Below the pieces are notes generated by a model. It made no database searches, had not been told where the DNA came from, and was given only the letters and a program-made list of their open reading frames with translations. From contig NC_087250.1 in NCBI RefSeq assembly GCF_037042905.1, positions 24,616,001-24,680,000 on the forward strand: 64,000 nucleotides of DNA. The letters are read 5' to 3'. Position 1 is the first letter of the stretch. Each line of letters opens with the position of its first letter. Position numbers and translations under genes: made by a program. Below are positions 6,001 through 64,000 of this stretch, in pieces. Source of the stretch: Lytechinus pictus. Its lineage: Eukaryota.

Positions 6001-6614
6001 CGCGCGTAATGCAAATTTGAATGGACGCGCATTCCCGTATTATTGGTCGTAAGAGGCTGAATGAGGTATCAAATTAATCAGAAGATAATGAACAATGGAA
6101 AGACATGAAAGAAATGATGACTCGAAGATGCATAACGATGGTAGGTGCAAGAACGCGCACGCATACCTGTGCGCGCGCAAATTCTTGACATGCTCAAAAT
6201 GACCAGAAACGTACCCAAACTTGACCACGGTCGATTTGGGGAAATTTAAAATTTTGACGCGCGCGTACGTGCGCGTCGTGACCTTTGCATGACCTCTGAT
6301 GATATGTCCTGATGACCTGTCACCTGAACTTGATATGATGCAAATATGGATGATTTTTGATGATTAGTTGCGATGATATGATCAATCATTTAATTTTACA
6401 AAATGGCGCCTAGATGACGTCATCATGATTTGATAACCTTGAAAAGTTTCCATTCCCATGTCCATAATGATGCCCATACATGACATGAAAATCAAGGAAA
6501 TTGACATGCACGATTTTGAGATAGAGGTGGACAAAGATTTGGCAATAAAAATAAATAAAGTAAATTCTGACGAATATAATAGGTGATCTGTCATATTCAT
6601 GACAGACCACCTAA
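1..6614. repeat. Tandem array of a 1162-bp unit (about 5.7 copies in the window, extends off the left edge)
   Basis: ORF track repeats at exactly +1162; units look identical by eye; array ends at ...gacagaccacctaa (6614). Confidence 0.97.
835..905 (-). ncRNA. tRNA-like / Pol III-type unit inside each 1162-bp repeat (also at +1162 multiples)
   Basis: Minus strand reads gTGGCCGACTGGataacacacctgactggtataccagggttcggtGGTTCAAACCtcgctggacccc (A box, B box), followed by a 22-T run. Confidence 0.55.
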
Positions 6615-7428: not shown

Positions 7429-7726
7429 TCATTCAGTACCTGAAAAAGATTCTTGTCCAGTTGTTGAATCTAATGATTTCATGAGTACGATGAGCTTGTT
7501 CTTTGCTTCAGGAACAGTCGGTTGCCTCTTTCTCCATATTACAAGCATGTCGTACATGGCCTGCTGTCTGTCTTTAATTCTTCTGTACTCAATGCGATCT
7601 AACTCAGTAATGGTGAAACCAAGAGCTACGCCCAAATCATAGAATTGGTTGACGGTCATTGTTTGGGCTATTGTAAGGACATCGGCGTCTGACTGTAAGT
7701 CACTGTGCTTGGCTTCTTCCACTGCC
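7429..7726 (-). CDS. Exon 10: death domain (DADVLTIAQTMTVNQFYDLGVALGFTITELDRIE...AMYDMLVIWRKRQ...KLIVLMKSL)
   Basis: Classic death-domain pattern LGxxLGFxxxELxxI...MLxxW; acceptor tttacag; TGA stop. Confidence 0.9.
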
Positions 7727-10700
7727 CTGTAAAATGTTAAGTGAATGTAACAGACCGAGCGAAGGCCAAGTGCCTAAACCAAATTCAGCATTATTCTGCA
7801 CGCCGTTGCCCCTCCCCTTACCACCCCCATATAATGCTTGTTAAATCATTCATATCCATCAAAGGCTTCATTCATTAATATAATAACAGGAACATGGCTT
7901 GGTCATAGCTTTTAGTGCACCACCATACGTGTGATCTAAGGCGAATTTAATAGAGAATTCTTGCGTTGCAAGCACGGATCAACACTATCTTTTGATTAAT
8001 CACAAGCAGTATGGGACGTCATGGTCTAGCGGTTATGTCCCTCGGCTTTCAACTCAGGGACGTGGGTTCGACTTACGAATCACAGATATTTGTTAATAGT
8101 TGATTGCAGGCTGTGATGTGCATGCGTGTAAAGCAAGACACCCACGAATAGCTGATGACCTCTCTTTTCCCGTTTCACTGCAAGATCCCCCATGTCAAAT
8201 TATGTCGATCCCTTGGCTAAAAGTATATTGATTCATACCACTTACCTGACGAACGATGTGGCCTCGGAAAGTAATTGGCGTGTCGGTCCTTCTGGCATAT
8301 CTGGGTATAAAAAAACACATCAAACGTCCCGTTTGAATTTATATGATCTTGATATTCTTGTGTTTGATGGACATTTCGCCTTATCATTTAATGGCAATAA
8401 AGGCATTCAGCATTATCGATTATTTTCATTCAAAAAAAAATGTCAGATTTTCCTTTTTGATAACCCACTGCAAAATTACTTGATCGAAAACCTATACCTA
8501 TTCCATGTGCCTTTTCATATCATTTTCAATCTATAAAAGTTGGAAAGTTGGCTTTTCCTACTATCTTCATGATTTTTTTGACGAAATTAATTATCTAACA
8601 ATAAACGATGATAAAAATACCTGTGTATCTGATGACGAAAACAATGGATTGTGACACTTCGAGCTTTCCCGCCTGTGTAATCGTGATGGCAATTCTTGTA
8701 AAGTCTTCATCATCCCCTTGAGGAGAAATGGCAAACATTACATTCTGACTCATCTTGGTTCGAATGTCCTTGGAAGGAAGGACCTGTTGTAAAAAAAATG
8801 TATTTATTCAGTTGAAGCAATAGATATCCGATTCGAGTGACTTGCGAGGTGCTGGTAGAACTGTCCGCATCAGTTTAAAATGACACGATTCCGGTATTTA
8901 ACATGTTTAAAAACAGCTTTCGGAAGACTTACCCGAGGGGCGAACGGACATTTTTTTTTTATTATTATGTTTTATCTCTCTCCAAGATAAAAATAAAAAC
9001 ATATATTATAGTACAATCAACAAAACATTTCATTTTTCATATACAAAAAAATACATCATTGATATTGGTCTAAACATAATGAACATGCAACATAATTCAA
9101 CTGAAGGACTGAGAGAACCACCACCCGACACCCCCCCCCCCCCACTCACACACCCTCACACACCCACGCAAGTACACAGCCCCAACGACAAGTTGACACT
9201 ATGCGATGATTATACAAATTTTCATGCCACAAATGCCTGAACAATGTTGATTATAAGTAGGAGTGGGCTATAAATGGGTGATTTTTGGTTTTACTGTAGC
9301 CAACAGTTTTTTTGTGTTCCTTTTACCTTATCTCAACATAAAAGGACAATATTTTTTTGTCTCGGGTCCGAGAAAAAAGTGTGCCGGGCCAAAATCCAAA
9401 ATGGCCGCCAACCCCCCCCCCCAAAAAAAAAAAAAAAAAAAACACACACATTTTTTGCCGCAATTTCTCTATTTGGTGGTCTTTTTTTCGGTTTAGGTGT
9501 CTATTCACATGTTTTGGGGGCAGGCAATTTGTTTTTCCTAAAATTACTATTTTTAAACCATTATATGTAGAGTTTAAGGATGATTTTACTTAAATTTACA
9601 CATTTTTAAAGCCTTTTTGAGACAAAACGTAGGTATCATCGTCCTGTGGTTCTTGGATATTAGACGATACCAGTTGAAGAGTAGCAAGCAGCTTTGTATA
9701 GCTATACTGATTTTATTCCTATAAATTGGGGTTTACGGATATTTGCGAAATATTTCAAATAAAAGAAAATGTCATTTATCCATAGGGGCTATACGGTATA
9801 CAAGGTACTGTACATACTACACTGCATATATCCATGCATTGACCACCATGACATGGAATACTTGCCAATAGTATCATTTTGTTCCCAATACTTGTTAAGG
9901 GTGGGGTTTCACACGCCAATACTTGTTAAGGGGTGCATTTGCAGAATATGGAAAATACGTGTTTAGGGTGCTTTTCGAGACCCCATAGTCGCGCATGGTA
10001 TCCACTCGTCAATGGAAGAGGCCCCTCCAGGCATAAACATCACATATCATATATACGTACATCACATTTTTAGCCATATATTCTTAAACTGGGTTTTTAT
10101 CTGGTTGTGGTGTATAAACATGGGGTCAGGTAACTACCATGGTAACGCTGATCAACAGCCAATCAGAATCAAGGATTCCATGCGAGTTACTATTGGTCGG
10201 CAAAGTTACCATAATGGTAACTTTTATGCAATGGGGCCCAGAATAGCTACAAGTACAGTGGAGCTAAAATGCCATAATGTGGGGTTGACTATAATCCATT
10301 GTTAATGGTATTTATCTCTCTCCGCCCCCTGAATTAGCATAATTGACAAAATATGTCCTCAATTTCTGAGACAAAGCATATCTTCACTTTCTTAGGCATC
10401 TAATTCTAAACGTAAGAGCTCATTTCTACGACACTATAGTTCATATACAGACCTTGTTATATGTCATGGTGGTCAATGCATGGGCATACATGTATTGCAG
10501 TGCAGTTTGTACAGTACATTGTATACTATAGCCCCTATGGACAAATGACATTTCTTTATTCAATAAGATATGTTTCGCAAATATCCGTAGAACCAATAGT
10601 AGAGGAGTAAAAGCAATATCTACATGTATATGAAACTGCTTGCTATTGTTGAACTCGCATTGTCTAATATCCAAGACCCACAAGACGATGAAACCTAATT

Positions 10701-16700: not shown

Positions 16701-19700
16701 TTGCTGAGAAATAACGATATTTACAACTATGACTATATTAAATATGTATCTCTAATTATTTTTTTACTGTTTGGGTATTATATAATAGAAGTGTCAATTG
16801 CCATTGCAGTTGCAAAAAGAATTTACTTTACAAAATTAACTTTTTTTTTTTAAAGTTCTAAGCTTACTGATTGACAAGCGGCCTCCTCAATCAAAGAGTA
16901 CAATCAAGCTCCGTGCTCAATTATGAGCCATGCAATATGCTTGGAAGAGACTGCTGAACGAAACTCCGTTCAAGTTTCATTGGAACCTGCAGCGACAGGA
17001 TGAACATGATTTTTTAGTACAGTTATAAGAATTGAATGCCTTGCTTCCTGTCTGTTATTTTGTTACAAGGAGCTACAAGTATACATGGTCGGAAAAGCAG
17101 AAGTACTGACTAGAAAAGGAGCGAGAATACTGACTTTACTGAAATACGGAAAATACTGAATTTATCGAGATACTGAAAATACTGAGATGAGTGAGGAAAC
17201 TGAAAGTACCGAAATTACTGAGATACCGAAATACTGAGATTACGTAGATACTCAATACTGGAATGATTGAGAAAATGGAGATAAGGAGTAACAGAGATTA
17301 ATTTTGAAAACTGCAACAGTCGGTACGGCTACAATTTATATGTATATGATGGATGTGTCTTTGAGGTAATTGTGTAATACTGTCAGATGAGCTGGATTAC
17401 CTTCATTTTCTGCCCCTTTCACTCCCTTTTTTTTTTACTTACGTCCTGTAACGTAAACATGGGTTATGTTTATTTTTTGTTGTAACATATTTACAGAACA
17501 TAATAGCGGTGATGAATAATTCTTGATCTGTTAATAATACCTCTCTTCCAATTTGTTCCTCCTCATGATAGCAAGTCAATATGACGTCATTAGAATTCGC
17601 TTCAACGCTGAATGGAACAGAGCGATGCCCTTTACGGAATGACTGCTGCATATTCTCCTTTTGTATGTCCTGTTGAAAGGAGATTATAATACCATTGTTT
17701 TATCTTTATGATAATGTAAATGACTACCTGTAATAGGAATTTAGGGTCACTTGTACATCAGATAAAGAAAATAATATCAAAAATAGAAAATAAAAATTAT
17801 ATGAAAAAACAGAATACAGCAACTAATTTTTTTTAATTCACGAATATCAACCCAGTCGAAATCCTCGTTCACAATCAAAGTATCTTCTATCTGAAATACT
17901 AGTAAAGTCCACTAATTTTGGTGATAGAGCTTTTGGTAAAATAGCATCAAAATTATGGAATAACCGACCTCGTAATGTAAGATCAATAACAGATTCAAAT
18001 CTGTTTTTATGTTTTAAAAACGTACCTTTTTTAACCCTAATAATGTACATGTTTAACTAGAGGGTTCATTCAGCCCCCCCCCCTCGACATTTTTTTACGA
18101 TAAATCCGCCGTGCAAAACTTTCTGACTGCGTCGCTAGCAGCTTTTTTTTTCAAAGTCTCGTGCAACTTTTGAGAACAAATTTCCGACCCCCGGGCAGGG
18201 GGTTTCGAAATTATGCAACATTTCGTAGTGCATGCAGACCCAAAATTGCTCGAAAACGTGAACTCGTGAACAAATCCACTGCAAATAGTGTTTTTAGCCA
18301 AAATTCATAATTGTATCATTATTTTTCCTTTTACTGATTAAAATCAATTAATTTAATCCTGTCTTTGGTCAAAATAAAGTCCCCGAAAATTTACATTGAA
18401 AAAAAAAAAATAATAAACAAAAAGTCTAAAAATAAAGAAATACATAAGAATTTTAGAGAACAATAAAATACATAAGAAAACAAATTGATGTTTTTTTAAT
18501 GCATTTAATCAGATTCCTATAAAGAGTATGCGAACTAAAAATTAGCAATTTAGGGGCATTAGTTAGTTAGTTAGCAAACGTTTGATTTGACGCATAAATT
18601 AGCATAATTGATTAGCAATGAAATTTTTCGCAGAATTTGATCCGATAGTTTTGTAGTTTATGCCATGGGTAATGCGCGAACCGATTTTAGTCCCGATCGC
18701 GCGATCGACGACCGAGTTCGGAGGGGAAAAGGGAGTGACTACATAAATTAGGGGGGGGGAATATTAAAAACTAGGGGGGAATTATAGACTACATGGTATC
18801 ATGTATCTCTAAGAACTGTATATTATTATTGCTTTTTATTCATGTTTGGTGATGTAAATATTAGTATACAATAGATATTGATATCCGTAATAGAGAGCTT
18901 ACTGACCATTTCAATGCCAGGAATGTCGGCATGCACATGAAGGCTAACCTCAAAGTCTTGCCCCCTGTGTATACTGTCTGGGATGTATGGAGTGCATAGA
19001 AGTCGATGTCGGATCACATGTTGTTTAAGAGGAATCAGAACCCACCACTCAGCACAGTGACCAATGTACAGCTCAAGATGACTCTTATAAACTTTAGAGT
19101 ACGGTGGTTGGTCTGGTGAACTGGATGACCTCATTCTGACAGTTTTGGGTAGGTCTTATTTAAAAAAAAAATATTAATTAAATATAGATTTGGGAGTATC
19201 ATGGCAGTACGCAAAGACTGACGACATTGTGACTGGTGTTGCTACTCTTTCCTTCAACACCATTCGTGTTGTGAACACATTGGCGGCGGAGCAGAGGATT
19301 CTCTTTTGTGTTTGGGGGACGCAACAATAGATATCTATTGTTGCGTCCCCCCCCCCCCCCCCACCACAAAAGATAATCCTCTGCTCCGCCGCCAATGTGT
19401 GAACAACATTATAATTTACCCCACACTGCCAACACTGATATCATCAACAAAACCACAACTGCATAATATGATGAGCAAAATGAACTTTTTCTTACAGGCT
19501 AGCAATGAAGTCGTTTCTGGATGCCCTGACTAGCACATTAATGGTGTGGAGCTCATCCGGCATCTTGCAACAAAATTTATCAAATTTATTTTATTTCAGC
19601 CCAGTTGAAACTGTAGTGAAGTATATTGGTGACATAAATTGAGGAAACAGAATTGAAAACGATGAAGAAATGACATAGAAGAAGCATTTTCTGTGATTTA

Positions 19701-22700
19701 AGAATAAATATCGTATAAATTAGCATAAATAATTTTTTAGTCAAAATTTATAAATTATGTGTAGAACCTTGTTGAGCTCTCAGATCGAACAACAAAGATC
19801 AAAATCATTCAACAAAAAATAAGAAGCATTTTATGTTAGTTTTGAAAAATATGCATAAATAAGCATATTTCACGAGTTTCAAAATTCTGTGTAAAAAAGC
19901 TACTCAAAAGTTTTAAAATTATTTGTAAAAGTTTTGTGAAACTCATGAAGCTCTAGATCTACCAGATGGAAGGAAAAAAAATCAAAATCGGTCAACAGAT
20001 AAAGTAGGAGAAGCGTTTTATGTGAATATTTAAAAATATGCATGAATTTTATCAACTTTTTCAAAAATCTTAGAAAAACTTGTGTATAGTAGTTTATTTT
20101 CCTTCTTGTCAAAAAGAGATATACTGTACCATAAACAATACGGGTTTAGACAGAACTACAGTACTTACATGGCTCTTTCAGATTTTACTAATATTGTTGC
20201 TAAATTATTTGAAAATAAAAGAGTTGTTTTAGGTATATTTTTAGATTTTACCAGGGCATTCGATTGCATAAGTCATGAAATACTTTTACAAAAATTGCAA
20301 TTTTATGGGATTAGGGGTACAGTACTTCAATGGTTTTCTAGTTACTTGAACAAAAGAACTCAGTATGTTTGTGTAAATAATGTATCTTCTGAAATCACAC
20401 ATAATACCTATGGTGTCCCTCAGGGATCAGTATTGGGTCCCTTATTATTTTTGCTGTTCATAAACGACATTCAATATGTAAGTAGTATATTACAATCAAT
20501 AATTTTTGCGGATGATACAAGTTTATTTCTATCTGGTGAAAATATTGATACATTGTGTTTTACTTTTAATACAGAACTTAAAAAATTTGATACTTGGTTT
20601 AAAGCAAATAAATAAAAATTTAATGCAGAAAAAACTTCCTGTATGTTATTTCAGCCAAAAAATCAAAATATCGATACTTCTTGTATAAAAATATATATCA
20701 ACCAACAAATTATATCGATTGTAAATTCTACAAATTTTTTTAGGAGTTAAAATTGACAATAAATTGACATGGAAAGAGCATGTATCTTATGTATCATGTC
20801 AAATATCTAAAGCTATTGGTGCAATGAATAGAATAAAGAAAATTGTTCCTTTTTATATCCTTCTTAAATTGTATAATAGCATGATCTTGCCATATCTTAA
20901 CTACTGTAATATAGTATGGGGTGGCTGTGCAAAGACCTATCTTAATAGAATTTTCATTCTTCAAAAACGAGCAATACGAATTATGTTTAATTTACATCCT
21001 TACTCACACAATGCTCCTGTCTTTAAAAAATTCAGTATATTAACAGTTTTTGATATACATAAACAACAGATTGGCATATTTATGTTTTCGTACTCCAAAA
21101 ATATACTTCCGAAGTTTTTAGAAAATTGTTTTGTATATAATAAAAATGTATGTAAATATGCGACTCGTCAATCAAATCTTTTCTATCTACCAGCGCTAAA
21201 TTATAATTTCTCAAGAACTACCATTTCTTATGCAGGTCCTAAGTTTTGGAACAAATTACCACAAGAAATCAAAATATGCCCAACTTTGAATATGTTTAAA
21301 AGAAAACTATAAAATACCTAGTTGAAAATGAATCCTAGAATAAAGTTAACAAAATCTTGCCGGGGGGGGGTCCAGGATGTCTGGTTGTCTTTTGTTATTT
21401 CATTTACACTTATATTTTTGAATTCCATGTGTGTCTATTTCTTTTTCTATTGTTTTGTGTTATACTTTGTATATATTGAAGAAACATTTTATGTAAATTT
21501 TTATTATCTTTGGGAATAACCCTGATAGGCCTTCCCACCACATTATGATTCTGAACTGAATATGTTTCTTTTTAATGTTTTTTTTTTATTGTATATATCT
21601 ATTTGCATATGAATTTGTACTTGTGTTTTTAATCAGATGTGGAAATAAAATTGAATTGAATTGAATTAATTTCGCATACATTAGTATAACATTTTTTCTA
21701 GTTAAAATGTCAAAATTCTTTGTATAAGTTTGGTGAACCTCACGAAGCTATACCAGATGGAAGGAAAAAAAACCGATTAACAAATAAAGAAGCATTTTTT
21801 TTTTGGGGGGGGGGGTGTTGGTGAATTTTGAAAAATGCGCATAAGATAGCATATTAAATGAGTTTCAAAATTCTGTGTAGAAGTTTTGAATCCCCCACCC
21901 AGTGCTATCAAAGCAAACGGAATTTAAATCGGACTTGAAATGACGAAGAAGAAGCATTTTGAAATGGTGGACAGACGACGGACGCCATGGCACGGCGTAA
22001 GCCCATCTGGCCCTTCGGGCCGGACGAGCTAAAAACCAGTCGATATAACCTGATAGAGACCAAGCATGCTCAGGGCAACGTGTCACCAATATTATCATCT
22101 GACAGGCTGTCTTCATCATCGGCTGTCATTTTTTTTATTATGATTCACTAACAAACAGAGGCCTGTGCAGTGGCAGACAGTATGGTAATTTTAGAGAGTC
22201 AGAACTTATCAGTGGTTACAAGATTAATGAATCGGTCCCATGAAGACACCCCAGTATCCTACATTTATTAACTTACCCCTCACAGAATCCCATACGCGGT
22301 ACACGATGTCTGGTTTCACCTGCTGTGGATTGATGACAAAGATAGAGTGTGGTATAGTTATTTTAACAGGTTGGTTGAAGATCACGGTTGGAGGGTCACA
22401 CCTGATCCCACAGCAGGCCATTGATTCACTTACTGGGATGTCAACACCGGGATTGTCTCTCATGACGGCCAGTGTGATCTGACAAGAGTCATCATGTGGA
22501 ACTGCTCCAGGAGGAATGTATATCGATATCCCATGGTCTTGTAGTTTGATTTCCTGACTGGTATTAGTTTTTACTTCTGCAGAAACCTCGGGAGAGGTGA
22601 ATGGCCTATTAGTGAGTTCTGAAGATACAGGAAGTGAGCAATTAGACCAATGGTGCATACATTCCAAACGAAATACATGCATTAATGTGTTTTGAATGAA

Positions 22701-25700
22701 TTAGAGCTCCAGAAGAATTACATTTTACATTAAATTCGTCTGCAGAGTTAATCTTCATCTTAAGAGTACATTCACCATTAGACTTACTCATGTATTTGTC
22801 ATTATCAAGTCCTCAAGTTTTTATCATCTTTAATAAATGTATATATAAACTATATATCCTTTATTACCTCGTCTTCATTTAAAATAATGCTGGTTGAAAG
22901 AAAAGAGCAACTAGATCCAATGCTAAAAGGGTGGAGAACCCGTTTTTCAACCAGCGAGATATCTACTAACTGTTGAACGGCACAAGGACAATCATGCCAC
23001 ATGACAAGAGAAGGAGAGGTCCTCTCTGTAAGCAATCGATTTAACTAACTAACTAACTGTACTTATTAACTACCTCCTCGACATCGAACTTGTCTCCTGA
23101 ACTGCCATTGCGATGGACTGACACAACGAAAGTAACAGCATATACCTAGCTGTAGGCATGGTAGGCCTCCCTCAAAGATGATGATTACGACAGTGACAAT
23201 GAAAGGAGATATGGAAATAGACCAAGAAGACATACAGAAGATGTGCCGTCCAGACGGAAGAAACAGATGGACGAATTAACAACGATCGCGAAACGACAAA
23301 CAACAGAGACAACACCTGGGGAGTGTTTCATAAAAGGACTTATCGGGCAATTTATCCTACAAGTCCTGTTATATCCGACAGTTAGCATAGTAGCAGTGCT
23401 TCTAAGCCAATCAAAATGAAGAAAAGTTTTCAGATCTGACAACTTGTCGGACAGAAATATTGATGAAATGCTCTCCAAATGACACATTGTACTCCGACAA
23501 AGGTAACGACGATGACGATAAATAGACTGATATGAACATGGAGTTGACAGAGAAACTGCAACCAACTATTATGACTTCCATGAACTTAACCATGTTGATG
23601 CCAGGATTGAACAGAAGGAATACTTTAAGACTGTGTTCAGACAGAGGAATATTTATGTTTCAGTTTCTTTGATGTTTCATGCCTGTTTAATATTCCTTTT
23701 GCTTTAAATTTACTTCTGATATTTGGATGGCTCTGGGAAGTCACACTGCTTTTTGTATTCTTTTGTGAAAGTGCGTGTATGATAGAACACAACAAAATTA
23801 TGGTACAATTAGAATTTCACTTATTTTAGATATTACAGGTTGTATGAATTGATAATTTTACCAAGAATCTTTTTTGTTAGCATAATAGTGTAAGAATGTA
23901 AAACTGATAACTGATCCTCTGTATATCCGTATGAATTAATTTTGTTTGAAGTCTCATGGTTCATTCACAACTGGTTTTAGTATTGCTGATATTTCCTCTC
24001 ATATATGTAAGTGTTATAGTTAATGCGAAATTATCAAAAATGTTCAAAGAGAATATAAATAAAAAATTTCGAAGGGTTGACAAGTCAAATAAGCTTGAAC
24101 TGCATTGATAAAAATGATAACATGCAAGAGTTGATCATCTGATATGATTCATGTTTCATTTGAATCGATAATTTCGGAAAAGATACATTATGGTATCATC
24201 AAAGTAGATATTACAAAAGATTAACTTAGGTATTTCAGTCGAATATATAATGTCAAATGATTACAATAAAAAGTTGATAAGAGTACACCTATGTAATAGT
24301 AGAGAGTACACCTATGTAATAGTAGAGAGTACACCTATGTAATAGTAGAGAGTACACCTATGTAATAGTAGGACCAATGGTCACTGGTGGCAGCAGTGGC
24401 GTAACTACGGGGGGGGGCATGGGGGGCACGTGCCCCCCCCCCCCCCCCCAATCGGCTGGAAGAAAAAAAAAACCGGGGAAAAGGAGAAAACGAGGGAGAA
24501 AGGAAGAGAAACGTAGTGGGAAAGAAGAAATTATTGTCCATTATAATGCTATATTATATTATGTTATGTTATATTACATAATGTTATGTTATATTACACA
24601 AGAAACATTTTTTTTCATAACTATATGAAACCTTATTTTGCTCAGGCCTATGTCTTCATTTTTTCTGGTGCTCGCATAGACTGTTTAACGAGATATATAA
24701 TTTTGTTGTACTAAAACCTCCCGTTTTCAAGTCGATATACACCAAATATATTTCCTCGCAATTCGATTTATTGTTGTTTGTACTGACATACAGCTGTATG
24801 CTTCTAACTACTTAAAGTGATTGCCCCATTTTAAGGTCTTAGTATAAAACATTTCCTGTCCGTGCTTACGTTTGCATTAGTGGATTGGTGAGATGTCTGC
24901 TCTTCATGAGTTCCTAAAATCAGTCCTTAAAATGTGCATTTTTTCTGATCTGAATACCAAAATTTTCAGCTCGGACTTCGCGCTCGCATCATTTGCTTAG
25001 TGAAATACATGCGGTCTTAGTGAATTCTTACAAACAAGCCTGAGAATGCCTCTCTTCAGGTCTGATTTTCCTAATTTTTAAGCTCGCACTTCGCGCTCGC
25101 AGTATTTGATGAGTGAGATGCGTATAATCATGATTATAATGACTTCAAAAAGTGCTTCATGTGTTTAGATGTAATTCTAACAAAATCAGCAATCACTTGG
25201 CACTCGCATTAGATCACTGTAGTTAGATATGTATACTCTTAATGGATTCCTAAAAATAGTCCTTAAAATATCCATGTTAGGGTCAATATATACACAAATT
25301 TCAGCTCGCGCTACGCGCTCGCATCATTTGGTTAGCGAAATACGTATGGTATTCATTAATTCCAACAAACAAACCTCAAAATGCTGGTCTGACTTTCCTA
25401 AATTTTCAACTAGCGCTCGCAATAATTGATTAGTGAGATGCGTATGTTAATCATGATTACAATGACTTCATGTATTTAGATGTAATTCTGACCAAATCAG
25501 CAAAACATGACACTAGCATTACATGACTATGGTGAGATATTTATACTCTTAATGGATTCCTAATATATAGTCCTTAAAATGTCCCTGTTTGGGGTCAATA
25601 TATACAAAATTTTCAGCTCGCGCTTCGCGCTCGCATTTTTGTTTAACGAGACAGGTACGTATATCATGACTACAAAAAATTTGCTTATAATGTCCCTTTT

Positions 25701-28700
25701 TCGGTCTGAATATCAAAAATTTTCAGCTCGCGCTTTGCGCTCGCATTATTTAACCAGTGAGATACATATCCGTTTAATGGCACTGCATGTCCGTAAAATG
25801 TTTCTATTAGGTCAGTTTACCTGGTCACTAAGACTAGTGACTCGAATGTTTTGCTGGTGCCCCCCCCCCCCATGCCGTGACCCACGGTACGCCACTGGGT
25901 GGCAGATACAAATACCAAGCCTTTTTGGAAGGATATTGTTTCCTTAATTACCCTAATTGTAAGTTTCATTCCGATAATATATCTGTCTCAATAACGTGTT
26001 ATTATGTTGGGTTAACGATTGATGTGATGTTTAAGAAATGTTCTTACCTCTTGTAGATTTTACCTCATCCAATGAAGATAACCTGCAAGTAATCACAAAC
26101 CAAAACCACTTTGTATATATTTTGTTTAATTAGTAGTATATGCCAGCTTTCCTCATTTGTAATTCTTTTTGGAAGTTAGAAGGATGAATGTAATCACACG
26201 TAAAGGATGTCACTGCAAAATGAAATGAACAAATGTGTACATCTCCTGTGTTTCGAATGTGAACTTGAAATAAAATGAAAAGTGATTTTTTTTGTTCTTC
26301 ATATTTACACAACGAAATATTCATTTGCACCCTAAATAGTGAAAGTGCTCTTACACCAAAAGAATACAAATCTACTCAGACTAACTTCACATTAATAATT
26401 CAGAAATCAGCAGCAATCCCGAGGGTTGGTAATTTCACCCCTACCTTTTTTTAGTTTGTGAAGAACATGGTGAATTTTGTCCATAAAACGTATTCCCAAC
26501 TTTTCCACGTAACGACGTGTGATATAACAACATATGAAACAGTCACCTTGACAATATCATCTGCCTGACTAGTTCATCCTTGGCATAGTGGATCGGTAGG
26601 TTGCCTGTGTCGTCCTTTACATCTAGCTTGGCGCCATTCTCAATGAGATAAAACACCAAGGACTCATTAGGAGATAACCCGCCATTGTAGTACTCGTTGG
26701 ATATCTGAAACAGAGAACAGCTTTCATTATTTACATGGAAAGTACAACCTGCTTTTACATGGGAATATTTTGTTTTAATAAATGATTACGCTAGCCAATG
26801 CGAATACATTTGTAGTGTCCCCTACAATCACTCAATTGGTTAGCTACATATACATATTATAATAATGTTAATATTCTGGGTCGTAAGTATATAGACGCCC
26901 GTCGCTGTAATGAAATGATAAAATGTTTCAAAGCAATTAGTTTGTTCCTTGGAAATAAATTTTGTTAACGTTAATGAAGGCATACTTTTCAGCAGAATGA
27001 TCTTCTATCATTAAGAGAATTTAATTCAAAGCTAAATGGTAAGTTGTAACCTTTGATATCTGGATTAAGAAAAGCTTTAGCCAGTTTTACAACCTATATT
27101 TTGATCATTTATGATGTCTCCTAGAACACTTGTATAAGTCCTATCAATATTGCAAACAATGTTATGGAGCCCCGTTCCTTTGAATAAATCACCTCTCTGA
27201 GTGTATCAGTGTTTTGAACTATCACGTTGTTCTTGTAGCATAATCTGATAGCTTTATGAAGACAGGTCTGGCCGTCAGACGACTGTAAATTGAGATCACA
27301 TCCATTGGATATCAACTTTTCGATGATAGCTGTATGGCCATGTATTATAGCAAGATGGATGGGTGCTGTATCGTCCTGGATGGAAAGACAAATAATCTCC
27401 GTATAACTAAAGCAAAAACATTTTTGCGGGCTAATTTTCCAATGTCACTGCCCTGCCTACAGCTTTAACATTAATAAGCGTTAACATAGTAATGAATGGG
27501 TATTTCCAGTGCTCCATTTTTAGTTTCCATGGCATTTCTGATCATTTTGAAGGTAAATACTAAGATAATCGTGTCTAGCCCATGTTTAATTTGTCCCGGC
27601 TCCTTTTGAAATTTAGCATCTTTGTCTTAAATGATGGTGGGTAAGTTATATGCTACAAAATAAATAATACAATCCTTTATCGAATGTACATTACAGAAAT
27701 TAGTCCTAATATAAATATAGTAATAGAACAATAAAGGAAAATTAAAGTACAGTTTATTTCCAAGAAAATTAAGTACCTTGGTATTCAACTTGTCTCGTGT
27801 TGCCTTATTCACCTCAGCTCCATCGCTGAGCAGATAGTCGGTGATATCAAGATGACCATGCATAACCGCAATGTGTAATGCAGTCGAACCAGTACCATCT
27901 CCTTTATTCACCTCAGCTCCTTTGCTAATCAGGTATTTAGTGATATCAAGATGACCATTCTGTACAGCGGTGTGTGATACAGTCCGACCATCATTATCAC
28001 CTTTATTAACCTCAGCTCCGTGACTGATCAGATATTTGATGACGTTAATAAGACCTTTGTCAACAGCTCTGTGTAATGCTGTAATTCCCTCATTATCCTC
28101 CTTATTAACCTCAGCTCCTTGACTGATCAGATACTTGATGACGTCAACATGACCATTGTAAGCAGCATTGTACAATGCAGTCTGACCATCATTAGCTCCC
28201 TTATTAACCTCAGCTCCTTGACTGATCAGATACTTGATGACGTCAACATGACCATTGTCAGCAGCACTGTGTAATGCAGTCCAACCATTACTATCTCCCT
28301 TATTAACCTCTGCTCCTTGACTGATCAGATACTTGATGACGTCAACATGACCATTGCCAGCAGCACTGCGTAATGCAGTCCGACCATTATTATCCTCCTT
28401 ATTAACCTGAGCTCCTTGACTGATCAGATATTTGATGACGTCAACATGACCATTGCCAGCAGCACTGCGTAATGCAGTCCGACCATTATTATCCTCCTTA
28501 TTAACCTGAGCTCCTTGACTGATCAGATATTTGATGACGTCAACATGACCATTGTAAGCAGCACAGTGTAATGCAGTCCGACCATCATCTCTACCCTTAT
28601 TTACCTCAGCTCCTTGACTGATCAGATATTTGATGACGTCAACATGACCATTGTTAGCAGCACAGTGTAATGCAGTCCAACCATCATTATCTCCCTTATT

Positions 28701-30575
28701 AACCTCAGCACCTTGACTGATCAGATATTTGATGACGTCAACATGACCATTGCCAGCAGCACTGCGTAATGCAGTCCGACCATTATTATCTCCCTTATTA
28801 ACCTCAGCACCTTGACTGATCAGATATTTGATGACGTCAACATGACCATTGCCAGCAGCACTGCGTAATGCAGTCCGACCATTATTATCTCCCTTATTAA
28901 CCTCAGCTCCTTGACTTATCAGATACTTGATGACATCAACATGACAATTGTAAGCAGCATTGTACAATGCAGTCTGACCATCATTAGTTCCCTTATTAAC
29001 CTCAGCACCTTGACTGATCAGATATTTGATGACGTCAACATGACCATAGTCAGCAGCACTGTGTAATGCAGTCCAACCATTATTATATCCCTTATTAACC
29101 TGAGCTCCTTGACTGATCAGATATTTGATGACGTCAACATGACCATTGTAAGTAGCACAGTGTAATGCAGTCCGACCATTATTATCTCCCTTATTTACCT
29201 CAGCTCCTTGACTGATCAGATATTTGATGACGTCAACATGACCATTGTAAGCAGCATTGTGTAATGCAGTCCAACCATTATTATCTCCCTTATTAACCTC
29301 AGCTCCTTGACTGATCAGATACTTGATGACGTCAACATGACCATTGTAAGCAGCATTGTACAATGCAGTCTTACCATCATTAGCTCCCTTATTAACCTTA
29401 GCACCTTGACTGATCAGATATTTGATGACGTCAACATGACCATTGTAAGCAGCACTGTGTAATGCAGTCCGACCAACATCTCTTCCCTTATTAACCTCAG
29501 CTCCTTGACTGATCAGATACTTGATGACGTCAACATGACCACTGTAAGCAGCATTGTGTAATGCAGTCCAACCATCATTATCTCCCTTATTAACCTCAGC
29601 TCCTTGACTGATCAGATATTTTATGACGTCAATATGATCTTTCAGAGCAGCAGTGCATAATGCAGTGAGACCTGTATCATTTATTTTGTTGACCTCAGCT
29701 TCTTGACTTATCAGAAACTTAGTGACGTCAATATAACCTTTGAAAGCAGCGAAGTGTAATGCAGTCCAACCATCGTCAGCCCTTTTATTAACCTCAGCTC
29801 CTTCACTGATCAGATACTTGGTAACATCAACATGACCAGTGCTAGCAGCACAGTGTAATGCAGTCCAAGCATATCTACCCCCTTTATTAACATCAGCTCC
29901 TTCACTGATCAGATATTTGGTGACGTCATTACGACCACTGCTAGCAGCAATGTGTAATGCAGTCGAGCCATCATCTCTTCCCTTATTAACCTCAGCTCCT
30001 TGACTGATCAGATATTTAGTAACATCAACATGACCAGTGCTAGCAGCACAGTGTAATGCAGTCCAACCATCGTTATCCCCTTTATTAACCTCAGCTCCTT
30101 CACTGATCAGATACTTGGTAACATCAATATGACCATTGACAGCAGCACTATGTAATGCAGTCGAACCATCTTTATCCCCTTTATTAACCTCAGCTCCTTC
30201 ACTGATCAGATACTTGGTAACATCAACATGACCACTGCTAGCAGCACTGTGTAATGCAGTCCAACCATCTTTATCCCCTTTATTAACCTCAGCTCCTTCA
30301 CTGATCAGATACTTCGTTACTTCGAGTTGATCATTCTGTACAGCGCTGTGTAATGCAGTCCGAGCGTTATTATCTTCTCTATTTACCTCAGCTCCTTGAC
30401 TAATCATATACTTCATGACTTCAATTTTACCATTTTTAGCAGCAATATGTAATGCAGTCCAACCTTCAAAAAAGCTACTTCCTCCATTTACCTCGGCTCC
30501 CTTACTTATCTGATATTTGACGTCTTCAAGATCATTGTTCATTACCGCAATTAATAATGCATGGTTGTTTCCCAT
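7429..30575 (-). CDS. Spliced gene: ankyrin-repeat / ZU5 / UPA-like / death-domain protein, ~1469 aa. Coding exons: 30575-27777, 27375-27193, 26704-26547, 26082-26048, 22618-22277, 19154-18907, 17669-17541, 8783-8621, 8300-8246, 7726-7429
   Basis: All introns are GT..AG and exon phases chain correctly (0,0,2,1,1,0,0,1,2). Total length 4410 nt is divisible by 3. An in-frame TGA lies 3 codons upstream of the ATG at 30575, and the stop TGA is at 7431-7429. Domains were recognised by eye. Confidence 0.85.
8012..8085 (+). mobile_element. tRNA-derived SINE head fragment
   Basis: A box tggtctagcgg, B box ggttcgact; no intact acceptor stem. Confidence 0.6.
8246..8300 (-). CDS. Exon 9: 55-nt linker (DMPEGPTRQLLSEATSFVR)
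   Basis: Acceptor tacccag, donor GTAAGT; repairs the phase 1->2 mismatch between exons 8 and 10. Confidence 0.75.
8621..8783 (-). CDS. Exon 8: UPA-like beta-rich region (VLPSKDIRTKMSQNVMFAISPQGDDEDFTRIAITITQAGKLEVSQSIVFVIRYT)
   Basis: Acceptor acaacag after a T-tract, donor GTATTT, open frame. Confidence 0.78.
9258..11036. mobile_element. Non-autonomous foldback DNA transposon (hAT-like) with ~600-bp imperfect inverted arms
   Basis: TIR taggagtgggctata / tatagcccactccta; flanking direct repeat (a)ttataag; ~9260-9860 is the inverse of ~10460-11036. Confidence 0.8.
12024..13104 (+). mobile_element. Non-autonomous hAT-like element, family A, copy 1
   Basis: TIR cagtggcgta / tacgccactg; 8-bp TSD gttggaat/attggaat; homologous to 24394-25897 and 58414-59525. 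Confidence 0.88.
13480..14250 (-). pseudogene. Decayed LINE (CR1/L2-group) reverse transcriptase fragment
   Basis: Minus strand encodes GAVPQGSILGPLLFII (~14210-14160, locally duplicated) and YADDTV (~14040-14020); frame broken. Confidence 0.75.
13772..13932. mobile_element. Near-perfect palindromic MITE (~160 bp) inserted in the LINE relic
   Basis: Ends actgtaaaaaa / ttttttacagt; ~60-bp near-perfect inverted arms around ttcaaatttaaa. Confidence 0.8.
14751..15331. mobile_element. Kolobok-like MITE (TTAA target)
   Basis: TTAA|agggatggtccgggct ... agcccggaccatccct|TTAA; foldback internal arms. Confidence 0.85.
15545..16112. mobile_element. Second Kolobok-like MITE (different family)
   Basis: TTAA|aggggaatccagcc ... 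ggttggattcccct|TGAA. Confidence 0.75.
17541..17669 (-). CDS. Exon 7: UPA-like region (DIQKENMQQSFRKGHRSVPFSVEANSNDVILTCYHEEEQIGRE)
   Basis: Acceptor tcaacag, donor GTATTA, 129 nt, phase 0/0. Confidence 0.75.
18030..18725 (+). mobile_element. DNA-transposon fragment (piggyBac-like end); related sequence at ~34260-34440
   Basis: ttaaccct start; shared cagcccccccccctcgacatttt...gaccccc block with 34260-34440. Confidence 0.5.
18907..19154 (-). CDS. Exon 6: ZU5 end / UPA-like start (HLELYIGHCAEWWVLIP...EVSLHVHADIPGIEM)
   Basis: Acceptor aaataag, donor GTCAGT, phase 1->0, open frame. Confidence 0.8.
19278..19397. mobile_element. 120-bp hairpin MITE (hAT-like)
   Basis: cattggcggcggagcagaggatt ... 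aatcctctgctccgccgccaatg; perfect 8-bp TSD tgtgaaca. Confidence 0.85.
20082..21668 (+). mobile_element. 5'-truncated LINE (CR1/L2-group) with disrupted RT ORF and (AATTG)n tail
   Basis: QYGFR, FLDFTRAFD, GVPQGSVLGPLLF and FADD motifs (ORF 20082-20615). After a stop and frameshift, the C-terminal part continues (20764-21312). aataaa plus (aattg)n at ~21643-21668. Confidence 0.92.
21670..22035 (+). mobile_element. 3' end of a Helentron/HINE-like element (body probably continues at ~19600-20080, split by the LINE)
   Basis: gacgacggacgcc then hairpin gcccatctggccc-ttc-gggccggacgagc-taaaa; accagatggaaggaaaaaa and gaagcatttt motifs occur on both sides of the LINE. Confidence 0.55.
22277..22618 (-). 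CDS. Exon 5: ZU5 domain (EIKLQDHGISIYIPPGAV...GIRCDPPTVIFNQPVKITIPHS)
   Basis: Matches the ZU5 hallmarks GxxLxIPxGA and xPxxxxFxxPVxITIPH; acceptor tcttcag, donor GTAAGT. Confidence 0.9.
24279..24370. repeat. 23-bp minisatellite (agagagtacacctatgtaatagt) x ~4
   Basis: Direct reading. Confidence 0.9.
24394..25897 (-). mobile_element. Non-autonomous hAT-like element, family A, copy 2 (opposite orientation, internal duplication)
   Basis: TIR cagtggcgta / tacgccactg; perfect 8-bp TSD ggtggcag. Confidence 0.92.
26048..26082 (-). CDS. Exon 4: 35-nt linker micro-exon (RLSSLDEVKSTR)
   Basis: Acceptor cttgcag, donor GTAAGA; converts phase 2 to phase 1 as the flanking exons require. Confidence 0.75.
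26547..26704 (-). CDS. Exon 3: terminal ankyrin repeat (LVFYLIENGAKLDVKDDTGNLPIHYAKDELVRQMILS)
   Basis: Acceptor gtttcag, donor GTGACT, open frame with ankyrin motif; absent from the ORF track. Confidence 0.88.
27193..27375 (-). CDS. Exon 2: divergent ankyrin repeats (DDTAPIHLAIIHGHTAIIEKLISNGCDLNLQSSDGQTCLHKAI...)
   Basis: 183 nt, acceptor ccatccag, donor GTGATT, phase 0/0, ankyrin consensus. Confidence 0.9.
27777..30575 (-). CDS. Exon 1 (933 codons): 28 tandem 33-aa ankyrin repeats (99-bp DNA period)
   Basis: 982-aa ORF with consensus DGxTALHxAAxxGHVDVIKYLISQGAEVNKGDN. Donor GTACTT follows ...DKLNTK; the ORF tail beyond it is intronic. Confidence 0.95.
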
Positions 30576-31178
30576 TTTGATTCAATTTGAGTAAACTTGT
30601 GAAATCTGTATAACCGCTTGACAATCTCCTCACCATACAGCATCATTTAACTCTAGCTCTCCTCTTGATCATTTTCCCAATGTAGTTCATCATTTTTTTT
30701 TAAATATCAGAAAGTTCCTATCACCACAGAGAGATGTCAATAGTCTTCCTTCCTGTGTACCTATTTGAAAATATATTTTCTCTCATTAAATTTATACAAT
30801 CGTACCTTGTGCGCAGCAAAATGTTTGTCGAATCGTTATCGATAACAAAATAGAGATAATTTCTTTAGATGGGACTTTAGCACTCTGCATACAAATATGT
30901 ATTACAGATATTATTTCTTATCTAGAGATGTATTTATTTGAAAACGCTGTAACTCCAATACTCATTATAGAGAATATGAGACTATACAAGAAAAAAAACC
31001 CAGTGGGGTGGCAAGATGCGTCAAGATTAGAAGAAACTTAAAGGCGAGGGGGCGAACTGACCGACCTAGCTTGTCATTGGTGCTATTTTTGGCTTCATTT
31101 TCTAAAGTGAAATTGAATGACTTCATGTTCAATCTCGGTAAATTCTGTGAAGATTTTCTTTAAAAAGTAAAAACAAAT

Positions 31179-32392: not shown

Positions 32393-32822
32393 GTAGATGT
32401 CCAGGGAGTAAATGTCCGCGGGGTAGATGTCCGGGCGGTAGATGTCCGCGGGTAGATGTCCAGGGGGTAGATGTTCAGGGGTTAGATGTCCAGGGGGTAG
32501 ATGTCCGGGGGTAGATGTCCGGGGGTAGATCTCCGTTGGGGTAGATGTTCGGGGGGATGTCCGGGGGTACATTTCCGGGGATAGATGTCCGGGGGGGGGG
32601 TAGATGTCCGATGGGGTAGATGTCCGTGGGGTAGATGTCCGGGGGTAGATGTCCGGAGGATAGATGTCCGGGGGGTAGATGTCCAGGAGTAGATGTCTTG
32701 GAGTGGATGTCCCGGGGGTAAAATGTCCTAAGGGGTGGATGTCCGGGGATAGATGTCCGGGGGTGGATGCCCAGGTGGTGGATGTCCGGGGATGGGGTGG
32801 AAGTCCAGGGGGTAGATGTCCT
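32393..32822. repeat. G-rich ~15-bp minisatellite (gggggtagatgtccg)n
   Basis: Over 25 degenerate copies; source of the low-complexity ORFs 32323-32965. Confidence 0.92.
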
Positions 32823-33063: not shown

Positions 33064-33434
33064 TCGCATACATTCGTAATTCCGAAGCTTCGTTATTCCG
33101 AAGGTTCGGATATTCCGAAGGTTCGTTATTCCGAAGATTCGTTAGTCCGATGACGAAATGAGGTTCGTAATTCCGAAGGTTCGTTAGTCCGAAAACTAAA
33201 TGATTAACGAACCTTATTTCGTTTTCGGACTAACGAACACCTTATTTCGTTTTCGGATTAAAGAACCTTCGGAAAAACGAACCTTATTTCGTTTTCGGAT
33301 TATCGAACCTTCGGAATAACGCCACAAATGTTCTGATTAACGATCTCTTTTACGTTTTCGGATTAACGATCATCGAGGTATAGGCAATTTACGTGTTTCG
33401 GAATTACGAACCTTCTGAATTACGAAGTGTAACC
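33064..33434. mobile_element. Short foldback element built of (cgaaccttcggaatta)-type repeats
   Basis: Left half ttccgaaggttcg repeats, right half the inverse; same family as 38195-38550 and 41826-42140. Confidence 0.75.
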
Positions 33435-36860: not shown

Positions 36861-38194
36861 CCAATGAATAAAACCCAAATAAAAGACACTAAAATAGGTA
36901 ATAGATAAATTGTGAATTTTTGGGCCATGGCAGCCATTTTTACGCAAACAAAATTAGAAAACAATAGAATAAATTTAAAAAATAAATGTGATGTTAATTT
37001 TTTTTTTTATAGTACATCTATGAGGAGTTGGGAACAAAAAATACCATTATAGAGGCATTATAGAGGCATAAGTCTCTGGTCAATTCTTCAATTCTAGTAT
37101 CAGTAAAAATTTATGAGATTACTTTTTTTATGATTATTTCTCAATATGAAAATCTGATGCTTAATTTTTCACCCGTGTTATCACGCATTTATGCATAATT
37201 TCGTCAAGCCATGTTAGTACTTTCCTTGTCTCTGTAAAGCAACGAATAGTACTAATTACACTAATGTAGATGAAAGTCATTAAATAAAGTGTTTGTATAA
37301 TGTAAAACAAATGAAGAAAACTACAGAAGATGTTCAATTTCACTCTTGTCAAAGCAAAAACGAAAAAGAAATAAGATATTTCTTCCTCTTTTTTTTTTTG
37401 CCAAAAACCCCAACAAGTTAGAGAATGAAGTTTTAAATTGTCTTTATGCACAAAAATAGAAAAGATATTTATTTCAGAAAACGGTATGTTGAATGAAGTT
37501 TTGTTTTTCAAATAATGTTTGATTTTACATAATTCTTTCCTTATCCAAAATGATAAACGAGAAATTTCTGTTTGAAATCACTAGCACAATAAAACATTTG
37601 TTTAAAAGAAAAACAAGGCTGTATGAAGGATGTAAAGATCACAGGAAAACCAGAAGTCACTTGAATGGAAATCTCTTGATGAGAGAAGAGCTATCTCAAG
37701 ACTTACACTTTTCTATAAATATGTAAATCACATTATTTTCAATCAACGTAGGTCGATAGCCAACAACTCATCTTTCTCCCGATCAACGAAAAAGACTGCT
37801 TGAAGTACTCCTTCCTTCCAAGGGTAATGCCAAGGAAATTAGCATGTTTAGATAAAGTAAGACGAGTGTCATTTATATTATATAGCATCTAAATGATGTA
37901 ATTTTTTTTGTTTTTAGGTAAAATACCTACAGTTTGTCTTTTCAGAATTTACAAGGAGTTCATTTTGCTTTAAACCAGTCATCAATTTTGTTTAAGTTCT
38001 CGGTTGGTGATATCAATAATTAGATTTAGGAGATTGTACTCGGGTGCAACACTGTAGTGTCATCGGCAAATAATACCGTTTCAAAGAATTTGATACATTG
38101 CATAAATCATTTTTATACTATAATGGAAAAATCAAGAGACCTAAAATTTAATCTGGGGGAATTGCTGAAACACCCACTTCGTAATTCCGAAGCT

Positions 38195-38550
38195 TCGTAA
38201 TTCCGAAGGTTCTTTATTCCGATGGTTCGTAATTCCGAAACACGTAAATTGCCTATACCTCGATGTTCGTTAATCCGAAAACAAAAAAGGGTTCGTTAAT
38301 CCTAACATTTGTGGCGTTATTCCGACGGTTCGTTATTCCGAAGGTTCGTTAATCCGAAAACGAAATAAGGTTCGTTTTTCTGAAGGTTCGTTAATCCGAA
38401 AACGAAATAGGGTTCGTTAATCCGAAAACAAAATAAGGTTCGTAATTCCGAAGGTTCGTTAATCCGAAAACGAAATAAGGTTCGTTAATCCGAAAACGAA
38501 ATAAGGTTCGTTAATCCGAAAACAAAATAAGGTTCGTTAATCCGAAAAAT
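38195..38550. repeat. Repeat arm (aatccgaaaacgaaataaggttcg)n
   Basis: Direct reading; inverse of 41826-42140. Confidence 0.85.
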
Positions 38551-41825: not shown

Positions 41826-42140
41826 TTTCGGAAATACGAACCTTATTTAATTTTCGGATTAACGAACCTTCGGAATTACGAACCTTATTTCGTTTTCGGA
41901 TTAACGAACCTTCGGAATTACGAACCTTATTTCGTTTTCGGATTGACGAACCTTCGGAATTACGAACCTTATTTCGTTTTCGGATTGACGAACCTTCGGA
42001 ATTACGAACCTTATTTCGTTTTCGGATTAACGAACCTTCGGAATTACGAACCTTCGGAATTACGAACCTTCGGAAATACGAACCTTCGGAATAACCGAAC
42101 CTTCGGAATTACGAAGCTTCGGAATTACGTATGTATGCGA
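41826..42140. repeat. Repeat arm, 42-bp and 16-bp units (cgaaccttatttcgttttcggattaacgaaccttcggaatta)n
   Basis: Direct reading; produces the NYEPYFVFGLTNLR repeats in ORF 41448-42185. Confidence 0.88.
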
Positions 42141-62900: not shown

Positions 62901-63387
62901 TATTACGAATTACGAATTCAACAAATCCCCTCCTTTGGGCCTAAGACCGTCACCGCTAATCATTTTATATTAACATAGACCAAAAGCTTCAGTCTCTGTA
63001 TTTTGGTTGTTCCGCTGAACTACGTTGGCTCCACTCACCATACATAGACTGAAGGGGATGGGGCCCTGTACCTACAGCCAACGTATAGTGAACTAGCGTT
63101 TTATAGATCGCGATTTAAAACTGTTTTTTAAGCAAAATTGAAAGTTTCATGGTTTCCATTATCAAGGAAATATAAATAACTTAAGTAATTGCATACCTTG
63201 GGCCGGAGTTATTGAAAAAAATCCTCTGGATGATTGAGAAATCTGTCATCTAAGACATTTTCACCTGACCTGACGGTTTTTGTCGGGAAATAATAAGATG
63301 GCAAATATAGCGATCTTCAACGCTTATATATAAGCGTCGAAATTTGTAGCCATCTCCTTGTATTAGTCTATAATATACGACGTGTCA

Positions 63388-64000
63388 AATTGTAGCGAAC
63401 TAGTTCGCCATTTCCAGATCTCCTCTATATATATATATACGAGGGGAAATTGTAGCGAACTAGTTCGCTATTTTCCAGATCTCCTCTATATACAAACGAC
63501 GGGAAATTGTAGCGAACTAGTTCGCTATTTTTCGGATCTCCTCGATATATACACGAGGGGAATTGTAGCGAACTAGTTCGCTATTTTCCAGATCTCCTCT
63601 ATAAACAAACGACGGGAAATTGTAGCGAACTAGTTCGCTATTTTTCGGATCTCCTCGATATATACACGAGGGGAATTGTAGCGAACTATAGTTCGCTATT
63701 TTCCAGATCTCCTCTATATACATACTACGGGATTTGTAGCGAACTAGTTCGCTATTTTTCGGATCTCCTCGATATGTACACGAGGGGGAATTGTAGCGAA
63801 CTAGTTCGCTATTTTTTATTTTTCCAGATCTCCTCTATATACATACGACGGGATTTGTAGCGAACTATATACGAGGGGGCATTGTAGCGAACTAGTTCGC
63901 TATTTTTTTGGATCTCCTCTATATATACACCAGGGAGGAATTGTAGCAAACTAGTTCGCTATTTTTCGGATCTCCTCTACATGTATACGACAGGAAATTG
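63388..64000. repeat. ~57-bp minisatellite with an 18-bp perfect palindrome tagcgaactagttcgcta; runs off the right edge
   Basis: About 11 units; alternating ttccagatc/ttcggatc variants. Confidence 0.92.

Follow-up and report, generated by a model that had tools for sequence, protein, structure and literature searches.

A clustered sea-urchin family of ankyrin, ZU5, UPA and death-domain genes: evidence for diversifying selection on the predicted binding face of the repeats under concerted evolution

Gene organization at the locus

The window, which is the whole 64 000-nucleotide stretch of Lytechinus pictus DNA analysed here, contains ten exons of a gene on the minus strand (Table 1). All ten have AG/GT ends and matching phases, and the frame is free of stop codons from the ankyrin (ANK) repeats through to the first death domain. 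Exon 1 is a single stop-free exon of 2799 nt (933 codons) in the window, running from an ATG at 30575 to a GT donor just past 27777 on the minus strand, which is exactly the interval that an earlier note on this DNA had assigned to the repeats. That note had counted 28 units. An array of 99-bp units is indeed present (26.9 copies according to TRF), and consists of 27 full units and a degenerate N-cap, the inclusion of which accounts for the count of 28.

Table 1. Exons of the minus-strand gene identified within the window (window coordinates)
Feature	Position	Strand	Evidence or remark
Exon 1 (first coding exon), N-cap and 27 ankyrin units of 99 bp	27777..30575	-	Pfam, TRF, reading frame
Exon 2, degenerate ankyrin repeats	27193..27375	-	Pfam Ank; AG/GT, phase 0-0
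Exon 3, last ankyrin-like repeat and linker, family-diagnostic	26547..26704	-	Genome matches
35-nt micro-exon, bridging phase 2 to phase 1	26048..26082	-	AG/GT; same micro-exon in paralogues
ZU5 domain, first part	22277..22618	-	Pfam ZU5 E=1.7e-12
End of ZU5, with H-C-A replacing H-F-S; start of UPA	18907..19154	-	Motif stretch begins at 19077
UPA exon	17541..17669	-	
UPA exon	8621..8783	-	
Linker exon	8246..8300	-	
Death domain 1	7440..7726	-	Pfam Death E=1.4e-5; gene continues left of window

The phases of exon 3 and the first ZU5 exon appear to conflict, and the possibility of a broken gene was rejected since this conflict is only apparent, being resolved by the 35-nt micro-exon. The micro-exon was also found for six paralogues (L011, L013, L029, L031, L033 and L045). 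The region between the ZU5 and death domains is, on structural modelling, a UPA domain: a close homologue, P0004 (38-row alignment, pLDDT 88.9), is predicted to fold like the cytoplasmic ZU5-UPA of UNC5b (TM 0.72, E=3.9e-11). To the left of the window the gene continues, the candidate exons being a second death domain in L052 and, in L070, a weak death-domain match (the third), a further conserved helical exon and a second ZU5.

An origin of the array as an assembly artefact was also rejected, as the frame is open and 23 distinct site signatures occur among 26 units. A short-read contig spanning 27193–27800 shows 17 differences in 609 letters. Short-read contigs from four runs, compared with 17300–27800, matched chiefly at repeat elements and revealed no splice joints, and in the comparison with 30276–31000 the 5' end was almost uncovered. 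The predicted protein begins Met-Gly (30573–30575, minus strand). Neighbouring genes L011, L013 and L031 have a longer and different N terminus, so lipid modification is not a trait of the family.

Other sequence features are present in and around the gene. A perfect 1162-bp tandem repeat of approximately 7.5 identical copies occupies window positions 1–6614 and L052:7795–10000, within the intron that separates the first two death domains; either it expanded very recently or it is an artefact of assembly. Pieces of a LINE-type element with reverse-transcriptase-like frames, recognized by eye, lie on the opposite (plus) strand at 20046–21312, in the intron between the ZU5 and UPA exons. Upstream of the gene there are short minisatellites with units of 15–16, 26, 42 and 57 bp (32393–32821, 33072–33321, 38177–38548, 41827–42129 and 63387–63979).

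Distribution of variation within the ankyrin array

The array is not uniform along its length. Units 10–24 (28098–29582) form a homogeneous core, in which pairs of units differ at 0–17 of 99 nt; units 3–7 constitute a block of a second sub-type, units 8–9 and the array ends are divergent, and the terminal units 25–27 are conserved. The earlier note described a nearly invariant framework across repeats 4–25 or so. This is accurate for units 10–24, where 70 of 99 nucleotide columns are invariant, but overstated for units 3–24, where the figure is 46 of 99, because of the second sub-type in units 3–7 and the divergence of units 8–9.

A single-sequence structure prediction of the array gives helical repeats (pLDDT 78) with a structural match to the repeats of ankyrin-B. 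The hairpins and coordinates of this model are unusable, and the location of variable sites on a binding face was taken instead from published work. Units were numbered such that the T of the TAL motif is position 6. In one designed ankyrin (DARPin) library, positions 2, 3, 5, 10, 13 and 14 are randomized and are said to point outwards on one surface (PMC3308923). A second library randomizes positions 2, 3, 5, 10, 13 and 33, and the same report gives positions 2, 3, 5, 10 and 13 as those of highest entropy in natural ankyrin repeats (PMC4308713). An auxiliary set, 2, 3, 5, 13, 14 and 33, was used in some tests; our conclusions rest on the two library sets from these papers. Core and outer-face site sets come from general ankyrin geometry.

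The substitutions in units 3–24 are concentrated, as had been noted, in the beta-turn, around TAL and after the AA pair. The nine sites named in the earlier note, which had been picked with the data in view, hold 91 of 118 non-majority residues. Library sites 2, 3, 5, 10, 13 and 14 account for 68 of these 118 (p=4.5e-6 among all possible choices of 6 from 33). The proposed overlap with DARPin library positions applies to 2, 3, 5, 10, 13 and 14; positions 1 and 9 also vary and are randomized in neither of these two libraries. Since clustering of this kind is generic for ankyrin repeats (PMC4308713), dN/dS becomes the deciding question.

Selection at the binding face

For dN/dS we used a recombination-tolerant codon likelihood, in our own implementation of a Dirichlet–multinomial approximation, checked against our own simulation alone. 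At the library face sites of units 3–24, dN/dS is 5.6 (grid interval 4–11, LR 23.2), and 4.0 (LR 15.4) with a fivefold CpG term. The more homogeneous units 10–24 give 4.0 (LR 9.4; LR 7.4 with the fivefold CpG term). When kappa and the CpG rate are both left free, the auxiliary site set gives values of 2.7–5.5, with a fitted CpG multiplier of 4–11, and for units 10–24 that six-site set is marginal (p=0.03). By uncorrected counting, pN at the face sites is 1.8–2.1 times pS. The variable codons thus have dN/dS well above 1 (4–5.6 at the sites defined by the papers), and variation is not spread evenly over buried and exposed sites, with values of 0.06 for core and 0.33 for outer-face positions (both sets from general ankyrin geometry). 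The framework and the ZU5 domain are under purifying selection; for ZU5, dN/dS is 0.15–0.46 in 19 of 22 paralogue comparisons, is 1.17 for one near-identical paralogue and is saturated in two.

Relaxed constraint combined with mutation bias could in principle generate such a pattern, if face residues drift and CpG-rich codons decay rapidly while conversion homogenizes the remainder. The generic entropy profile of natural ankyrin repeats, already highest at the shared library positions (PMC4308713), fits this explanation, as do the codons found at position 5 (CGG/TGG/CAG) and position 9 (CGC/CAC/TAC), the high fitted CpG multiplier, and the fall of these two positions in the window gene to 1.4 and 0.7, respectively, once CpG is modelled. 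Variation at position 9, the histidine of TALH, is largely CpG decay. Positions 1, 10 and 13 remain significant, and are the only ones to stay above 1 individually in the window gene with CpG modelled. Moreover, a framework CpG at codons 18–19 is intact in 14 of the 15 core units, and outer-face positions are not elevated in the window gene, though they are variable in the divergent P0007 array. In neutral gene-conversion simulations with and without CpG hypermutation, LR exceeded 2.71 in 56 of 1018 runs, corresponding to the 5% level, and the observed LR was reached in 0 of 367 and 0 of 651 runs, with or without eightfold CpG mutation. The counting statistic (observed pN) was reached in just 2 of 141 and 8 of 610 kept neutral runs. 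Drift with mutation bias is therefore considered improbable.

A targeted, deaminase-like mutator, or short-patch conversion from divergent donors, might also create face variation without selection. Many of the face changes are transitions, and repeats are exchanged between genes. Mutated or imported patches should nevertheless bring silent changes with them, and in units 10–24 all 41 non-majority bases of the six library codons fall at codon positions 1–2, leaving position 3 unchanged. In the framework (24 codons) of these units there are 6 at positions 1–2 and 18 at position 3, and framework codons adjacent to the face are almost invariant. On these counts, such a process is very improbable.

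Synonymous diversity is uneven within the unit, pS being 0.05 beside the face codons and 0.15–0.26 further off. Use of the distal pS alone as the denominator gives uncorrected ratios of approximately 1.35–1.6; constraint on synonymous sites, if there is any, would inflate dN/dS.

The signal extends to other members of the family. In a pooled analysis of 21 distant genes, dN/dS is above 1 at positions 1, 2, 3, 5, 10 and 13 and not at positions 9, 14 and 33, with 14 and 33 near 1. The face set exceeds 1 at p<0.05 in 20 of 26 homogenized family arrays (19 with CpG), which are not independent tests because the family genes are related. Uncorrected counting over whole arrays, caps included, with the auxiliary set is weaker, with an interval that excludes 1 in 8 of 19 paralogue reading frames.

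Gene family and concerted evolution

Exon 3, which encodes the linker, has 44 matches on ten contigs of the genome. Of these, 38 cover its full length at 59% or above, so that at least 38 loci share this diagnostic exon. The ZU5 exon has 26 close matches among 77 in the genome, and an ankyrin array was present in the adjoining 10 kb at 18 of 19 close ZU5 loci and at 0 of 10 weaker ones; the latter ten were left out of the family. Some 30 more distant ZU5 genes are clustered at G000 C8 39.8–42.3 Mb and on C37, and those sampled lack an ankyrin array within 10 kb upstream. They are a separate expanded family.

Array size ranges from 8 to more than 100 units per gene, with 98 in one gene. The unit sample comprised 1111 units from 37 arrays, among which there are 697 distinct eight-site signatures. 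Selection tests used the 26 arrays with at least eight homogenized units; the other 11 of the 37 are too divergent or too short, so homogenization is not family-wide. Several arrays have unusual structures. The longest, of approximately 155 units spread over 16 kb (L033, L085 and L086; G000 C6 18.147–18.163 Mb), is broken, with stops and a change of frame near its 5' end. In the neighbouring gene L011 there is an in-frame stop in mid-array (L011:5279–5283), which is likely to mark a broken copy or allele. The next gene leftward (L029:4738–7326, minus strand) has a divergent array with insertions, one of which is a Ser-Tyr-Arg run in a loop.

Framework pS between the window gene and its neighbours (0.104 for L011, 0.118 for L031, 0.128 for L013 and 0.148 for L012) is similar to that within the gene (0.111). 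It rises to 0.21–0.23 in comparison with a cluster 6.5 Mb away and to 0.39–0.43 with genes on another contig. The stalks of the neighbouring genes are far more diverged, with pS of 0.29–0.69 for stalk exons compared with L011, 0.30 for ZU5 compared with L031 and 0.46 for exon 3 compared with L012. Low framework pS alongside high stalk pS indicates that neighbouring genes share a single pool of repeats even though their stalks diverged much earlier.

Exchange is also visible at a finer scale. Of the 190 informative site pairs in units 10–24, 88 fail the four-gamete test, which is indicative of either intra-unit shuffling or recurrent change. L013, the nearest paralogue, has 94–98% identity to the window gene over approximately 10 kb downstream, and 14 scored units compared with 26 in the window gene. 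The 5' end of the window gene differs from that of L013, and is best matched by another neighbour (67%). Such a pattern would result from a crossover within the array, in either direction, that exchanged the ends. The tree of units has little resolution, with 9 of 164 branches starred, and labels still cluster by gene, so that it gives no more than a hint of interleaving of repeats across genes.

The background of concerted evolution proposed in the earlier note is thus supported both within the gene and across the cluster, and its proposal of diversifying selection on a ligand-binding face is supported by dN/dS above 1 at the library sites and by the failure of a neutral gene-conversion model to reproduce the signal. 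Taken from these sequence comparisons, diversifying selection on the ankyrin binding face under concerted evolution is a highly probable reading.

Alternative output domains within the family

PIDD and related proteins self-cleave at H-F-S at the end of the ZU5 domain (PMC3210808). The window gene and the neighbouring L050 and L053 have H-C-A in place of H-F-S and therefore lack the nucleophile, so self-cleavage is not predicted for the window gene. The H-F-S motif is kept in L084, P0021 and P0114. In the gene covered by L083 and L084:2139 (G000 C8), an array of at least 65 units precedes a ZU5 with H-F-S, and this is possibly a self-cleaving branch of the family.

A sister gene on G000 C12 (L078:202–4686 and L079:2172–8653, minus strand; protein P0101) has an ankyrin array and linker exons followed by a TIR-like domain. 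Its array is of the same type as that of the window gene and two linker exons are shared; the ZU5-UPA-death portion is replaced, and the exons are genomic and lie on one strand. The TIR-like domain matches Pfam TIR_2 with E=8.2e-6 at 26.8 bits, just under the 28-bit cut-off, and its language-model neighbours are TIR clusters (0.91–0.92). A comparison of the domain with solved structures matched no TIR.

Comparison with known systems

The closest named homologues of the array gene are sea-urchin proteins from Lytechinus and Strongylocentrotus; the search with the array was dominated by unrelated ankyrin proteins and recovered no allele. The closest known system is the concertedly evolving ANK repeats of fungal NLRs (PMC4986451). 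Podospora Pa_3_8560 and the HNWD family have near-identical ANK, TPR or WD repeats in which the concave face and beta-hairpin are under positive selection, together with variation in repeat number, proposed exchange within and between loci, and alternative effector domains. High internal repeat conservation is defined there as more than 85% identity over 100 residues (PMC4986451), and units 10–24 of the window gene fall within this definition. Positive selection at concave-face positions is likewise shared, the face location being that given in PMC3308923. In the sea-urchin genes, repeat number differs between close paralogues, and proposed exchange within and between loci and alternative effector domains are further common features. 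In contrast to the fungal NLRs, the family is animal, its repeats are N-terminal and encoded in one giant exon with up to more than 100 units, and the output is ZU5-UPA with death domains or, in one sister gene, a TIR-like domain. No NACHT or NB-ARC domain was found in Pfam scans of homologues P0002, P0003 and P0007, and there is no room for one between the in-frame ANK and death domain 1 exons. Without a nucleotide-binding domain, the window gene is not an NLR.

The window gene resembles UNC5b (PDB 3g5b) in its predicted ZU5-UPA fold, as modelled through P0004, and in the absence of a cleavage serine. Unlike UNC5b, it has an ankyrin stack preceding the stalk, extra death-fold modules and a second ZU5, and the exons and homologues scanned gave no Pfam match to a UNC5-type Ig or thrombospondin ectodomain or membrane helix. 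As in PIDD1, NLRP1 and CARD8 (PMC3210808), a repeat region is followed by ZU5-UPA and a death-fold domain, and sister genes keep H-F-S. It differs from PIDD1 and the FIIND sensors in having ANK repeats rather than LRRs (Pfam detects only ankyrin repeats in the window gene, and no leucine-rich repeats), in its H-C-A motif, and in belonging to a hypervariable multigene family.

The order ANK stack, ZU5, UPA and death domain is shared with ankyrin-R/B/G. A lineage-specific, ankyrin-like cytoskeletal adaptor, with repeats growing by unequal crossing-over, would account for this likeness to ankyrin-B in domain order, for the top profile match (ankyrin-2, E=1.2e-10) and for the name 'ankyrin-1-like' given to homologues in databases. 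It would not account for the presence of one ZU5 before UPA in place of the tandem ZU5-ZU5 of the ankyrins, with the second ZU5 following the death-fold modules, nor for near-identical, homogenized single-exon repeats of widely variable number in a large clustered family, nor for a binding-face dN/dS above 1. An adaptor of this kind is thus very improbable, and the window gene is not a PIDD, an ankyrin or a UNC5.

The constant framework is shared with DARPins, and five of the six positions selected family-wide (2, 3, 5, 10 and 13) are randomized in both libraries (PMC3308923; PMC4308713). The arrays differ from these libraries in being natural and far longer, in selection at position 1 also, and in the near-neutrality of positions 14 and 33 family-wide.

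Possible function and significance

The preferred interpretation is that the locus contains an intact ankyrin-ZU5-UPA-death-domain gene, the product of which is likely to be an intracellular sensor signalling via death domains (probability approximately 0.58). In the intron-free array, the framework would be homogenized and the face residues reshuffled through gene conversion and unequal crossing-over, both inside a gene and from one neighbour to another, and selection would retain new face residues. The protein would be cytosolic, with the repeat stack binding a variable ligand; candidates are microbial or altered-self proteins. On binding, the ZU5-UPA-death-domain stalk might be freed or clustered with no self-cleavage step (cf. 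UNC5-type autoinhibition), and could then recruit death-domain adaptors and signal by death-domain assembly.

Selection may be real and the function non-immune, if the targets of the arrays are fast-evolving proteins of the host or of selfish elements in germ-line conflict, allorecognition, or interactions with gamete or developmental partners. Nothing in the sequence signal identifies the ligand, the stalk fold is closest to that of UNC5b, a developmental receptor, and the stalk lacks the cleavage serine of PIDD-type sensors. Several death-fold modules and the TIR-like sister gene point instead to innate-immune or cell-death signalling, and expansion in clusters, some copies being broken, is in keeping with immune families. 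A non-immune role is therefore unlikely, though it deserves more weight than the alternatives discussed above.

Returning to an intracellular sensor, a wider and more tentative picture would be that of an undescribed 'natural DARPin library' in the germ line. The clustered genes, numbering in the dozens, would encode intracellular receptors whose intron-free ankyrin stacks trade repeats between neighbours, a convergence with fungal NLRs in the absence of a nucleotide-binding domain. The three outputs of the library, which we propose with the same reserve, might be a non-cleaving death-domain stalk, a self-cleaving PIDD-like stalk and TIR.

Searches of the open literature aimed at the family or its regime found no title or abstract that describes it, and the family is not described in passages of four papers (PMC10855541, PMC8195603, PMC8260672 and PMC8683736). 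We regard the sea-urchin ankyrin death-domain family as uncharacterized, and its signal as real and well supported. Immune diversity in sea urchins is usually framed in terms of TLRs, NLRs, scavenger receptors and the Transformer family. If the interpretation is correct, these genes would represent an additional class of intracellular sensors in animals, and a fungal regime of repeat diversification would be present in an animal.
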